DNA from: Eledone cirrhosa
Taxonomy: Eukaryota
Direction of reading: 5' to 3'
Assembly: GCA_964016885.1 (NCBI GenBank)
Contig: OZ024744.1
Location: forward strand, 28,830,001-28,894,000
Length of the DNA stretch: 64,000 nucleotides
The stretch's first letter is position 1, and each line of letters starts with the position of its first letter. The notes under the pieces are model-generated. The model worked only from the letters and a program-made list of their open reading frames with translations, was not told the DNA's origin and searched no databases. Positions 13,887 through 64,000 of this stretch are shown one piece after another. Both the position numbers and the translations under genes were made by a program.

Positions 13887-14412
13887 TCCTTTTTCTTTTA
13901 GGTCAAGATATTATGGTTTCCTAATGGAAGTTAAAATTAGTAAATAAGATTGAATAAGCGAAATTAAAAGTTTAGATTTGTAGTAAATTAAAGAATATAA
14001 CCTAAAGTATAGAATGCGATAACTTAGAAGAAAACTAGTAAATATCGTCTTCCATCGGATGAATTAACACGCAGTGATAGATAAAAAAATATATCGGAAC
14101 AAAGTATACATACTCATACACATAGGTACACACGCGCACACACACACACACACACACACACACACACACACACACACACACACACACATATATATATATA
14201 TAAGTATGTACACGTACATACATATATGTATACCGACGTACAGTAGTATGTATATATATATTTATATACATACATGCACACATATATATATGCACGTATG
14301 GATTCACCGAATATTTATTACAATGCTCGGTGTGTTTGTAAACAAACATCCCGTATTAAGCCGTAGTGTCTAGCAACCACCGTTGCTCGTTGGTTCAACA
14401 CTGACAAAGAAA

Positions 14413-14453
14413 CGCTGTACTAGTTTCAAGCTTGTTAGCTATCGTCAGCAACG
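14413..14453 (-). ncRNA. Minimal type I hammerhead ribozyme (family 1)
   Basis: Exact reverse complement of the motif at 14960-15000. Confidence 0.85.
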
Positions 14454-14959
14454 TATACCTTCCTGCCAGATTGTTGAACGTATATACTTACCTTATGCAT
14501 ATTAACGGCTGAGTAGCCCAATTTGCATATCGAGTGGGTTAATCGGCCGGGTGCACCGAAAACGATAAACAGAAAAAATGAAACGATATTTCATTTCCCA
14601 CTCTTAGTACGGCTGTTACTTAAATATAAGTATGTACACGTACATACATATATGTATACCGACGTACAGTAGTATGTATATATATATACATACATGCATA
14701 TATATATGTGTGCATGCATGTATATATATATATATACATACTACTGTACGTCGGTATACATATATGTATGTACGTGTACATACTTATATTTAAGTAACAG
14801 CCTTACTAAGAGTGGGAAATGAAATATCGTTTCATTTCTTCTGTTTATCGTTTTCGGTGCACCCGGCCGATTAACCCACTCGATATGCAAATTGGACTAC
14901 TCAGCCGTTAATATGCATAAGGTAAGTATATACGTTCAACAATCTGGCAGGAAGGTATA

Positions 14960-15000
14960 CGTTGCTGACGATAGCTAACAAGCTTGAAACTAGTACAGCG
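14960..15000 (+). ncRNA. Minimal type I hammerhead ribozyme (family 1)
   Basis: CGTTG-CTGACGA-t AGCT aaca AGCT t-GAAA-CTAG-TA-CAGCG: stem I CGTTG/CAGCG, stem II AGCT/AGCT, palindromic stem III ACTAGT, GUA cleavage after 14995. Confidence 0.88.
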
Positions 15001-15387
15001 TTCCTTTGTCAGTGTTGAACAAACGAGCAACGGTGGTTGCTAGACACTACGGCTTAATACGGGATGTTTGTTTACAAACACACCGAGCATTGTAATAAAT
15101 ATTCGGTGAATCCATACGTGCATATATATATATGTGTGCATGTATGTATATATATATATATATACATACTACTGTACGTCGGTATACATATATGTATGTA
15201 GGTGTACATACATATATTTAAGTAACAGCCGTACTAAGAGTGGGAAATGAAATATCGTTTCATTTTTTCTGTTTATCGTTTTCGGTGCACCGGGCCAATT
15301 AACCCACTCGATATGCAAATTGGGCTACTCAGCCGTTAATATGCATAAGGTAAGTATATACGTTCAACAATCTGGCAGGAAGGTATA

Positions 15388-15428
15388 CGTTGCTGACGAT
15401 AGCTAACAAGCTTGAAACTAGTACAGCG
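15388..15428 (+). ncRNA. Minimal type I hammerhead ribozyme (family 1)
   Basis: Identical to 14960-15000 and 428 nt downstream. Confidence 0.88.
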
Positions 15429-15789
15429 TTCCTTTGTCAGTGTTAAACAAACGAGCAACGGTGGTTGCTAGACACTACGGCTTAATACGGGATGTTTGTT
15501 TACAAACACACCGAGCATTGTAATAAATATTCGGTGAATCCATACGTACATATATATATATGTGTGCATGTATGTATATATATATATACATACTACTGTA
15601 CGTCGGTATACATATATGTATGTACGTGTACATACTTATATTTAAGTAACAGCCGTACTAAGAGTGGGAAATGAAATATCGTTTCATTTTTTCTGTTTTT
15701 ATATATATATATATATATATATATATATATATATATATATATATATATATAAGAGTATTGAAATTTGCTTGAAGCATTGTGGAATAATA

Positions 15790-16318
15790 AGATATATTTT
15801 TTAGGACGTTTTGGAAGCCTCAATAATGCAGATGGGTAATTCTCCGGGTAACAAGATCCGGTGGTGAAATGAGAGATGTAAGGGAATGTAGAATGAGATG
15901 TATAGTGTGTAGAAGAATGTAGGAAAGAGCGTAAAAAATAAAAATAATAACACGAGATAGAGTTACCTTGCGAGAGATTTAATTGTCCCTATATTTCGGA
16001 TTGAAAATATGAATATTCAAAACAACGAACAGCGGAGGTCACGTTTTGCTCCTATCCGACAGATAACCTCCCCCTCCCTCCGAAAAAACCCCAGTCGATG
16101 GATGCGAATCCGAAATATAGGGACAATTAAATCTCTCCCAAGGTAACTCTATCTTGTGTTATTATTTTTATTTTTTACGCTCTGTCCTACGTTCCTCTAT
16201 ACACTATACATCTCATTCTACATTCCCTTACATATCTCTCTTCACTGGATCTTGTTAACCGGAGAATTACCCATCTGCATTGTTGAGGCTTCCAAAACGA
16301 CCTAAAGAAAATATATCT
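15790..16318. repeat. Foldback element with about 210-bp imperfect inverted arms (15790-16002 / 16107-16318) and a spacer of about 105 bp
   Basis: Arms align as reverse complements with about 10 substitutions and small indels. TA/TCTA repeats lie nearby on both sides. Confidence 0.85.
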
Positions 16319-61544: not shown

Positions 61545-61724
61545 GTTTCTACTTTTGGCACAAGGCCAGCAATTATCCAGTGCATTACTGGTACTTTATT
61601 TTATCGACCCCGTAAGGATGAAAGGCAAAGTTAACCTCGGCGGGATTTGAACTCAAACCATAAAGGGGCGTAACTCTTTGCTGCAAAGCATAGCGTCAGA
61701 CCCTCTACCGATACTGCCAATCCA
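61545..61724 (-). mobile_element. tRNA-derived SINE resembling families I recall from octopod genomes
   Basis: Minus strand A-box-like TGGCAGTATCGG, B-box GAGTTCAAATCC and body GCCTTTCATCCTTACGGGGTCGATAAAATAAAGTACCAGT. Confidence 0.75.
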
Positions 61725-61961
61725 TTAATAATGATATATATATATATTTTAATATGGCAAAGCCGGCCATTAATAGCTCGTATACAGGAAACTGACTGGC
61801 CAGTCTACTGATATGCAAATCTTGCTGATCAGTGGATCTGCTAATATGAAGATCAACTGATCAGCCAATCTGCTAATATGCAAATCAGGCTGATCAGTTA
61901 CTGTATATTTTAGAAAATAGCATAAATTTTCACTAGCTCTGACAGTTGTCAGGTGAAGAGT

Positions 61962-62011
61962 GAGCTGTACTGATGAAGGGCGATACCCAGAAATATTAGT
62001 GTCTGCAGTTC
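61962..62011 (+). ncRNA. Hammerhead ribozyme (family 7), orphan
   Basis: GAGCTGTA-CTGATGA-a GGG cgata CCC a-GAAA-TATTAGTG-TC-TGCAGTTC: 8-bp stem I, GUC cleavage after 62003, A.A mismatch at the base of stem II. Confidence 0.75.
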
Positions 62012-62220
62012 TGTTTACATGCCAACACTGACATGTCTTTCAAATTGAGGCTTGTTTTCATAATTGCAAATGAATCGAATATTATTATTAATATTCGAAA
62101 AACTCAGATTACATTTATTATATATATATATTTTTTGTCGATCGACTTTCGTCAAATTGGACCGAGGAAACATTGTTTCCGTTGGTCTTTCTAATTGCTA
62201 ATACTATCACAACTCCAGGT

Positions 62221-62344
62221 AGCTGGAGCAACGTGAAATAATGCGTCTTGCTCAGGGACATAAGACATCGCCCGTTCCAGGAATCGAACTGACAACCTCA
62301 CGATTGTGAATCCCGTTCTCCAACCAATCAACCACACGCCTTCA
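62221..62344 (-). mobile_element. Truncated tRNA-derived SINE (second family)
   Basis: Minus strand GGCGTGTGGTTGATTGG (A box), AGTTCGATTCC (B box), then CCCTGAGCAAGACGCATTATTTCACGTTGCTCCAG. Confidence 0.7.
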
Positions 62345-62439
62345 CTTATATATACATACATTCATATATACATACATATATATATATATATATATATATA
62401 TATATATATATATATATATATATATATATATATATATAT

Positions 62440-64000
62440 GATATTAAATAAATGGAAACTATATTTATAAAACCATATTTATTTCATTATATATATTTCA
62501 GGGATATCATATTAACAATATGTTATGCCTTCTTCAGACAAAATACAATATAAACAGTCTTATAAATAAATAGATACGACATACCTTTCAATCGACTTGC
62601 ATTTGGGAAGTTGATTTGGCAGTAAAAATATTATGGACAGTTGTAAAAAGAAAGAGAGAAAGAAAGAAAGAAAAACGAAAAAAAAGAAGAAATGCATGTG
62701 ACTAAATAGAGAGATATAGAAAGATAGATAAAGAGAAGAACTTCATGTAAAGAAACAGAGAGAGATATATAGAGAGAGGAAAAAAAAAAGAAAGAGATAG
62801 ATAGAGATAGATAGAGAAACTAGGTAGTTGAGCATCAGTTGATACATTTATTTATTTATTTATTTATTTATTTAGCTCTAGTAGTAATGTAAAGAAAGAT
62901 GTATGTAGTTAAGAGAGAAAATAGCCGTTATATAGAGAGAAAAAAGAGAAAATGAAAAAGAGAAAATGAAAAATAACCAGACATAAGCGAGGCAGAATTT
63001 AAAAAACGCTATGTTTCATCATTTATAAAATATTAGTTCGTATAAAACAGGCATTATAATGTAAATATCAGTATTCATGAATGAGACATGTATCTATAAT
63101 GTGTGAAAAGTAATGATCTTATGTCTAGTTTTTAAAAATTCATATGTTTATATCATAACTATAAACAAACTCCCATTTCACACGAAAACATTCTCATTGT
63201 GCTATAAAAATTCAAGTATACATATATGTGTGTATATATACACATATATATAGAGTCTATATTAATTATAACAATACTATTCTTGTCTTTACTCTACATG
63301 ATTATCGATCATTATTACAATGAAGCGTTAGCTAGAGCAGGATATAGTGATAAAATTATGTACATAGATAATGATAAACAAATTAAACAAAATAACAACT
63401 ATTTTAATTACGGCCACAACCTTAACAACTATAATAGAAAGCATTACAATAATTCCAAAAACCATAAAAGAAATAGAACTAGGAATATAATATGGTTTGC
63501 CCCCCCTTTCTCACTAAACATTAAAACCCACATCGCTAAACTATTTTTTAAAGCTCTTGATAATCGCTTCCCTAGAACACATAGGTATCACTCAATTTTC
63601 AATAGACATACTATAAAATTAACCTACTCATCCACCAAAAATTTAGCACAAAATATTAATAGAATAAATAATAGGAACTTAAAACCTAGCGATAATAGCA
63701 TAAATAATATACAAGTTAACAAATGTAACTGTAGAGATAGATCTAAATGTCCGTTAAATAACAACTGCTTAGTTAAAAATATAATATACAACTGTAATGT
63801 TAAAACGGACGTTAATTCTTTTAACTACGTTGGTTCCACATCGACGGAATTTAAACTTCGCTATAACAACCACAAGAATTCTTTCACAGATCCATCCAAA
63901 AAATCTTCAACAGCACTATCAGGCGTACTCTGGCAACTTAGGCATGATAACGTTAGATAATCGACGACTTGGAATATAGTTTCAAGAGGGATTCCTTTTA
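62440..64000 (+). mobile_element. 5'-truncated Naiad-like Penelope element (coding from about 63310) preceded by an inverted pLTR/3' region; runs off the window
   Basis: YYNEALARAGY..IIWFAPPFS..CNCRDRSKCPL..YVGST is close to 50509..51207. The minus-strand pLTR lies at 62440-62590. Confidence 0.85.
62480..62545 (-). ncRNA. Hammerhead ribozyme (relative of family 5) in an inverted pLTR
   Basis: Minus strand TATTTTGT-CTGAAGA-AGGCATAACATATT gtt AATATGATATCCCT-GAAA-TATATA-TA-ATGAAATA. Flanks match the 48976 pLTR. Confidence 0.8.

Follow-up and report, generated by a model that had tools for sequence, protein, structure and literature searches.

The window analysed here, a 64,000-nucleotide (nt) stretch of contig OZ024744.1 from Eledone cirrhosa, carries 14 hammerhead ribozyme sites that belong to eight insertions. 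We interpret the window as a pile-up of retro-insertions of Penelope-like elements (PLEs) in which the hammerheads are expected cargo, two tandem units without an open reading frame (ORF) are retrozymes moved by PLEs, and the ribozymes most likely cut only as dimers. We assign this reading a probability of about 0.82.

An initial annotation made from the sequence alone had described an unusually dense population of 14 complete hammerhead folds. Both strands of the window were scanned with a strict descriptor for type I hammerheads (a core of CUGANGA or UUGANAA, GAAA, an NUH site, stem I of at least 4 bp, stem II of at least 3 bp and a self-complementary stem III). The scan returned 12 matches, every one among the 14 sites and none elsewhere, with C3 of the core at 14448-, 14965+, 15393+, 20176+, 20495+, 23425-, 25553+, 48984+, 53304+, 55227-, 61970+ and 62537-. 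Core, GAAA, NUH site, type I order and three stems are complete at these 12 sites, and the other two have one lesion each: GAGA replaces GAAA at 16389- (core 16441-), and the 15.2-16.2 pair in stem III is broken at 19843- (core 19892-). Dinucleotide shuffles (three sets of 300, n = 900, made over the whole window, 1000-nt blocks and 300-nt blocks) averaged 0.03 strict matches with a maximum of 1, and the reversed sequence gave 0. The descriptor was drafted after inspection of the sites and is thus fitted to them, but the gap between real and shuffled sequence far exceeds such freedom. The 14 folds therefore hold up as 12 strict and two single-lesion copies, the descriptor comparison with shuffled sequence that had been proposed as a check comes out in their favor, and the hammerhead motifs are confirmed as real at the level of predicted structure. 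A second proposed check, the Rfam hammerhead models, gave no match to the window at gathering score. The best score among the matches listed (150 of 181) was 23.9 bits for Hammerhead_HH9 (cut-off 52, E 0.16), at 20162-20233 and 20481-20552, and the E-value scan was swamped by microRNA models on AT repeats. Rfam misses all motifs in the window, and annotation therefore undercounts hammerheads.

The 14 sites are not independent, because self-BLAST and pairwise comparison reduce them to seven sequence families in eight insertions. The ORF-less insertions A and C hold three hammerheads each, the PLE insertions H3 and H1 two each, and D, H2, F and a fragment at 62480 one each. Seven of the sites lie in PLEs or PLE end fragments, six of them of Hydra type and one Neptune/Nematis-like; the two ORF-less tandem units of 428 and 319 nt account for another six, and one is an unassigned monomer (F). 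All sites fall into two clusters, at 14.2-25.6 kb and 48.7-62.6 kb, and the strict descriptor found no match in 1-14 kb or 26-48 kb. The claim of density accordingly stands as a count of 12-14 motifs in 64 kb, and it is tempered by eight insertions of seven families in two clusters with 36 kb devoid of a match.

Every element has its type I hammerhead near the 3′ end, and tandem or inverted extra copies are seen for A, C, D′, H1 and H3. PLE integration leaves a partial tandem together with an inverted truncated copy, yielding two to three hammerheads per event. We ascribe the density to these two to three ribozymes per insertion and to (TA)n tracts within the elements' own sequence, in which insertions nest. 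Such tracts are present in the Hydra-type untranslated regions (UTRs) of both H3 arms, and 14 of 19 listed insertion ends adjoin an AT-rich microsatellite by manual reading. If the GIY-YIG nuclease targets (TA)n, as the description of PLEs in PMC8557442 suggests, the tracts of earlier insertions would become landing sites for later ones, a nesting that is seen in H3. PLEs are described as tending to insert into or beside earlier copies (review PMC6765202).

Four copies, H1 to H4, are Hydra-type judging from their sequence motifs, (TA)n insertion and pseudo-long terminal repeats (pseudo-LTRs) with a canonical hammerhead. Members of the Hydra clade are described as having a C-terminal GIY-YIG nuclease, RW[KR], DKT, CxCX5C, CxxC and CxH motifs, (TA)n targeting and universal hammerheads (PMC8557442). 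H1 (48709..53402, plus strand) is near full length, with a unit of 4320 nt, and ends in (TA)n. Its pseudo-LTRs (48709-49088 and 53029-53408) are identical at 375 of 380 positions and contain one family E hammerhead each, at 48976..49040 (plus; predicted cut after 49032, AUA) and at 53296..53360 (plus; about 1.9 kb behind the stop codon; predicted cut after 53352). The coding region for reverse transcriptase (RT) and nuclease (49221..51424, plus) is spread over four frame pieces with RWR (49323), DKT (49565), YRDD, CxCX5C, YVG, CxxC and CxH; the region corresponding to RWR and DKT is missing from H2 to H4. The CxCX5C linker is found in H1, H3 and H4, with its first Cys altered in H2, whereas CxxC and CxH are found in H1 to H3; the C-terminal GIY-YIG-like nuclease of H1 lacks CCHH. 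Sixteen sequences homologous to the RT piece of H1, with identities of 33-51%, map onto H1, H2, H3 and H4. Pfam gave no match for the Hydra-type pieces, and Atlas placed the RT-nuclease region of H1 with RT/HTH_animal/DUF8422 clusters at 0.92-0.95, without a clade name. Assignment of H1 to H4 to the Naiads was rejected, as Naiads have an N-terminal nuclease and no canonical hammerheads (PMC8557442).

H2 (55125..58815, minus) is a decayed, 5′-truncated copy with (TA)n at both ends and a coding remnant from 58815 to about 57150. Its family E′ hammerhead (55169..55235, minus) has one mismatch in stem III and a predicted cut after 55177, and the spacing between hammerhead and ORF matches that of H1 (1912 nt in H2 and 1893 nt in H1, into the compared UTRs). 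Another family E hammerhead (62480..62545, minus) belongs to a 3′-end fragment that is 89-91% identical to the H1 pseudo-LTR and ends in (TA)n. This fragment is possibly the inverted arm of H4 (63292..64000, plus), a coding fragment close to H1 that is interrupted by the end of the window. The family F hammerhead (61962..62011, plus; GUC site, predicted cut after 62003) is a single copy with no ORF and no assigned parent element. A 32-nt repeat (61804-61898) immediately precedes it, and inverted 60-nt ends beside (TA)n lie 1.6 kb apart at 61733-61795 and 60124-60183.

H3 (16357..25638, both strands) joins a minus-strand, 5′-truncated copy running from 21609 to 16357 to an inverted plus-strand copy running from 21600 to 25638. 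The arms share four collinear matches at 74-93% identity, and each includes roughly 2 kb of 3′ UTR rich in microsatellites. Its coding remnant (20703..21609, minus) comprises the end of the RT thumb, the CxCX5C linker, a GIY-YIG-like nuclease, CxxC and CxH. Family B hammerheads mark both arm ends, at 16389..16448 (minus; the GAGA core lesion) and 25546..25606 (plus; 11-bp stem II, stem III of 4 bp plus 1 nt, predicted cut after 25599, GUA). The collinear arms rule out this pair as a passenger in its own right. H3 itself hosts four later insertions: C, D, D′ and a 5′-truncated long interspersed nuclear element (LINE) with RT and no hammerhead (18019..19650, plus), which by its features is probably of the RTE type.

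D (23226..24269, minus) is a 5′-truncated, Neptune/Nematis-like PLE in (TA)n, whose CX4CxxC linker precedes a terminal GIY-YIG (ORF 24169-23627); its RT is missing through the truncation. The family D hammerhead (23387..23429, minus) lies 200 nt behind the stop codon, with an extra base between positions 9 and 10.1 and a predicted cut after 23391 (CUA). D′ (24300..24971, both strands) is an inverted pair of 3′-end copies of a sister family of D with decayed cores at 24603- and 24725+, and a further D′-type 3′-end copy (25757..26024, plus; 83-84%) has a decayed core at 25792 and ends in (TA)n. An identical 15-nt "tail" is present on tiny inverted D-type stubs at 24255-24269 and 17565-17579, the latter in an insertion of only about 40 nt within an H3 (TA)n tract.

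Six weaker cores had also been listed, of which four are plausible decayed or variant copies. At 24576-, 24725+ and 25792+, the core and stem II are intact, stems III and I fail the strict and relaxed descriptors, and homology to the element at 23387- leads us to read the three as decayed. The core at 53768+ is a U4C variant, its stem I is limited to 3 bp, and it was matched by the relaxed descriptor only; that descriptor gave 15 matches, five of them at sites absent from the initial list, and two in the reversed control, so its match speaks weakly for this site. At 26922- and 48564+ the 5′ half of the core occurs without a GAAA, a stem III or a pairing partner for stem I; these two are unconfirmed and were rejected as hammerheads. 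Further core-word matches, including 50174- and 27619-, were dismissed as chance. Short insertions with inverted arms beside (TA)n, at 15752-16320 and 53425-53913, contain U4C-type cores at 16080+ and 53771+ (palindromic stem III of 4 nt, stem I of 3 bp) and are possibly a further variant hammerhead type; the copy at 16080, which the initial annotation did not list, is more decayed. A 244-nt fold-back (60469-60712) with a hammerhead 5′ core at its center (60590+) has lost G12 in the plus arm and retains GAAA, stem III and a GUC site in the minus arm. Located within a duplicated LINE stretch (59355-59453 and 60712-60811), it is probably another inverted PLE-end insertion.

Insertion A (14190..15699, plus) consists of an ORF-less 428-nt unit in about 2.3 head-to-tail copies after an inverted copy, and both of its ends merge into (CA)n/(TA)n. 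Its type I hammerheads are located in the inverted arm (14412..14454, minus; predicted cut after 14418, GUA) and in successive tandem units (14959..15001, plus, with a 6-nt palindromic stem III and a predicted cut after 14995; 15387..15429, plus, with a predicted cut after 15423). The unit is 37% GC and folds with a z-score of -6.7 against shuffles, a value obtained with the unit opened one base off the cut site and helped by AT palindromes. AT-rich palindromes and short microsatellites native to the unit occupy 14596-14815 and 15100-15220, and both ends of the insertion lie at AT microhomologies within the unit. Insertion C (19685..20566, plus) combines an ORF-less 319-nt tandem unit with an inverted copy. 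The inversion joint falls within an extended stem I, and the inverted arm terminates at (TA)n. Its hammerheads are at 19843..19905 (minus; inverted arm, with the stem III lesion), 20163..20225 (plus; U3-A8 core, 12-nt palindromic stem III, GUC site, predicted cut after 20212) and 20482..20544 (plus; second tandem copy, predicted cut after 20531). The C unit is 33% GC with a folding z-score of -7.0 against shuffles.

In both insertions, two units in succession contain a complete type I hammerhead apiece (14965/15393 in A; 20176/20495 in C), which is the working definition of an active non-LTR retrozyme used by Li et al. (bioRxiv 10.64898/2026.07.22.740005). The units are short, non-coding (longest ORF, 45 amino acids), below 45% GC and highly self-paired. 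As described for PLE insertions (PMC8557442), each further combines an inverted copy with (TA)n at one end or both. From this shared signature we infer that A and C are non-LTR retrozymes whose mobility depends on a PLE protein acting in trans. The several ORF-less passengers of the initial annotation thus come down to two tandem units, the third candidate being the two ends of H3. Its link between hammerheads and PLE pseudo-LTRs is borne out. Its autonomous PLEs are not: the reading frame of H1, the only copy close to full length, is broken three times, once at a poly-C run, the remaining copies are fragments, and no single intact RT-nuclease ORF is present. The frame breaks of H1 may be assembly errors.

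Family C extends to other samples. A search of public runs with 20163-20566 listed 14 holders, 11 of which contain part of the query and three of which contain half or more of its words; no RNA run is among the 14, which is uninformative on expression. Reads or contigs of four of the 14 runs, under three organism labels, were mapped to the C unit, and the small-share runs X7-X11 were left unused. One 319-nt unit recruits 1388, 3 and 13 contigs and 3013 reads in these four runs, and the 319-nt return join is present in all four. As the cut point of the unit is arbitrary, this join reports cyclic order and not array length, and mapping depths were not taken as copy numbers. By these sequence matches, the 319-nt unit is a high-copy family across three organism labels. 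The segment behind the hammerhead (20254-20330) is about 10 times deeper than the hammerhead in run X1, and its upstream loose ends differ; both features hint at a sister family of higher abundance. Loose ends at 20519-20530 in runs X1 and X5 are family C stem III variants that are near-palindromic around a single central base. Read-end pile-ups in restriction-site-associated DNA sequencing were rejected as evidence of cleavage because they are located at restriction-like sites.

Thirteen variant rows affect paired positions of the hammerhead or its extended stem, and all but one preserve pairing (12; null mean 5.4, P 3e-4, indicative given that the rows, 40 of 50, are unphased and related). 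Two-sided changes occur at 20504/20513, 20494/20532 and 20465/20558, the first of them at equal depth in one X5 contig.

Computed folding points to cleavage in dimers, as the initial annotation had proposed from the palindromic stems III. A forced monomer stem III hairpin costs +0.4 to +6.0 kcal/mol at all 14 sites, whereas the two-copy duplex is favorable at 13 of 14 (-2.2 to -19.5 kcal/mol; +1.4 for D). The unconstrained minimum-energy fold of 20145-20566 is a double hammerhead with free cores (P 0.21), compared with P 1e-4 for the active monomer; in the computed monomer, a helix between the U3 region of the core and the stem III palindrome traps the fold. The genomic dimer of A leans the same way less strongly (double hammerhead P 0.0015, active monomer 4e-6). 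Hammerhead dimer cleavage has reportedly been described by Lunse et al. These models suggest that the ribozymes most likely cut only as two tandem copies pairing their stems III. Read-through transcription of a tandem would allow double-hammerhead cleavage by paired palindromic stems III and release a unit-length RNA that is off as a monomer and may circularize; a PLE protein would then reverse transcribe it and insert it at (TA)n as tandem and inverted copies.

Several observations weigh against this account. The window contains no intact PLE among its copies to act as driver, self-BLAST and sequence comparisons revealed no link from A, C or F to any PLE end in the window, and the right end of C lies outside (TA)n. 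The 12 core positions of family C have no variant rows, yet this avoidance alone is nonsignificant (P 0.12), and the 40 of 50 rows behind the pairing statistic are unphased and non-independent. Long inverted repeats can also stay paired at the DNA level. Reported activity is frequently low. Among Xenopus retrozyme dimers, one of nine is described as cleaved (bioRxiv 10.64898/2026.07.22.740005), and the hammerhead of the Anolis Poseidon PLE is described as needing protein and as dispensable for insertion in vitro (PMC11167929). One could conclude from the eight uncleaved dimers, the unaffected in vitro insertion of Poseidon hammerhead mutants, the lesions at two of 14 sites and the decay of at least three further copies that the hammerheads are inert relics carried by PLEs, with no cleavage in the cell. 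We regard this as very improbable: pairs are kept and changed on both sides across C subfamilies, seven unrelated families retain core, site and palindromic stem III, and decay of single genomic copies is expected regardless.

An origin of A and C as 3′-end pieces, or pseudo-LTRs, that full-length PLE families left here after 5′ truncation had removed the ORF is somewhat less remote, although we still judge it quite unlikely. Most PLE copies are described as 5′-truncated and partly tandem (PMC8557442), D′ consists of ORF-less end copies of a coding family within the same window, and the uneven depth of the C unit, far higher behind the hammerhead, would fit such an origin. However, A and C repeat from hammerhead to hammerhead, the units fold on themselves end to end (z -6.7 and -7.0), and contigs of other samples cover the 319-nt cycle joins, which a one-off truncation would not yield. 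The distinction is in any case one of degree, because retrozymes are thought to derive from pseudo-LTRs. It is also unlikely, if a little less so, that the genome as a whole carries an exceptional hammerhead load of more than 100 per Mb, far above that of described animals, and that the window is representative of it. The count here corresponds to about 190-220 per Mb in one selected window, compared with about 4 per Mb in axolotl (up to 120,000 copies, PMC7229834, in 28.21 Gb, bioRxiv 10.64898/2026.07.22.740005), and at least seven families plus further decayed remnants are present. Against this, the count comes from a single selected window with two nests, 36 kb empty and eight events in place of 14, and coral is already described with more than 6000 motifs in 16 families (PMC7229834). 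It is tempting to speculate that these threads join: that the host lineage has one of the richest animal hammerhead loads, fed by Hydra-type PLEs that deliver their own (TA)n targets, with retrozymes bearing a PLE signature and a U3-A8 lock in the 319-nt family, whose U3 would allow stem I and core to pair with the stem III palindrome and keep the monomer off until a second copy arrives. We consider this combination doubtful. If true, the PLE signature on retrozymes would be direct genomic evidence of PLE-driven retrozyme mobilization.

The surroundings are animal-type repeat DNA that includes LINEs, satellites, a Helitron and 59 (TA)n tracts; the long ORFs examined in the window include no host gene. 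SINE-like sequences and the repeat mix suggest an octopod host. Several copies of an L1/Tx1-like LINE with AP endonuclease and RT, one of them with a 924-amino-acid frame (42091-39317), occupy 1-13900 and 38600-42100, alongside an RT element (4649-6938). A decayed Helitron lies at 32300-36700 (Helitron_like_N at 36123-35017, with helicase-like remains further left on the minus strand). Minisatellite arrays at 45530-47104 (period 73, 21.6 copies) and 47702-48276 (period 72, 8 copies) contain no hammerhead cores.

The initial annotation had also implied novelty for a ribozyme-based mobile RNA "ecosystem", which is an already described state; Penelope-type insertions stacked within each other with hammerhead cargo are known from many invertebrates. 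Retrozymes beside PLEs are reported in coral, mussel and axolotl (PMC7229834), PMC4209133 describes minimal hammerheads by the thousand in single genomes, divided among many families, and Li et al. present retrozymes as non-autonomous PLE derivatives (bioRxiv 10.64898/2026.07.22.740005). PMC4209133 also describes the U3-A8 core, the extra base at 9/10.1, the palindromic stem III, dual motifs on opposite strands and a dimer model. In cephalopods, Penelope expansion in coleoids (PMC8967140) and 31 recently active Penelope-like families in the Octopus vulgaris annotation (PMC13282606) are reported; the words "ribozyme" and "hammerhead" occur 0 times in the main text of the latter. Hydra-1_Obim of Octopus bimaculoides is listed with a hammerhead (PMC8557442 File S1/S2). 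No cephalopod hammerhead survey appeared among the titles listed for octopus and hammerhead ribozymes, and the families of the window may already be catalogued in Dfam, Repbase or preprint supplements. We view as mildly new the PLE insertion signature on both ORF-less units, the family sequences, the covariation of family C and the predicted monomer lock. The literature searched by topic and term yielded no stated observation of that signature on ORF-less units; the word "inverted" occurs 0 times in the main text of PMC7229834 and in a reference title only in bioRxiv 10.64898/2026.07.22.740005. PLEs have been proposed as retrozyme movers from co-occurrence and pseudo-LTR trees, and the inverted copies and microsatellite ends bear on which enzyme moves animal retrozymes. 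The window thus extends known biology with new PLE and retrozyme hammerhead families, and the 319-nt family offers a clean assay substrate, predicted to be inactive as a monomer and active as a dimer.

In comparing the elements with known systems, we noticed both likenesses and departures. H1 to H4 resemble the Hydra-clade PLEs of PMC8557442 in having a sense-strand hammerhead close to the 3′ end, a truncated copy in inverted orientation and (TA)n ends, and the family B stem III of 4 bp plus 1 nt is a form common in the File S2 list. The stems I and II of Hydra-1_Obim are unlike those of the window families. The 4.3-kb unit of H1 exceeds the 1.1-3.0 kb of the listed Hydra families because of its microsatellite-rich 1.9-kb 3′ UTR; it falls outside a tendency of the clade toward lengths below 3 kb, which is no rule. 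D shares with Neptune and Nematis PLEs (PMC8557442) a CX2-5CxxC linker, terminal GIY-YIG, hammerhead behind the stop codon, (TA)n ends and an inverted stub that bears a short tail, but it lacks the RT.

Like the animal non-LTR retrozymes of PMC7229834 and bioRxiv 10.64898/2026.07.22.740005, A and C are ORF-less, low-GC, self-paired tandems with one type I hammerhead per unit that coexist with PLEs. The 428-nt unit exceeds the 170-400 nt range of the former and lies inside the 51-972 nt of the latter. Unlike retrozymes as described in those two papers, A and C carry an inverted copy and microsatellite ends. The window hammerheads share with the PLE hammerheads of PMC4209133 the U3-A8 core (Schistosoma, about 1300 matches), the extra base at 9/10.1, the palindromic stem III and a wide range of families in a single genome. 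Family C differs from those in that its U3-A8 core belongs to a full-size hammerhead whose palindrome measures 12 nt and whose stem I has an extension of about 20 bp, all within an ORF-less unit.

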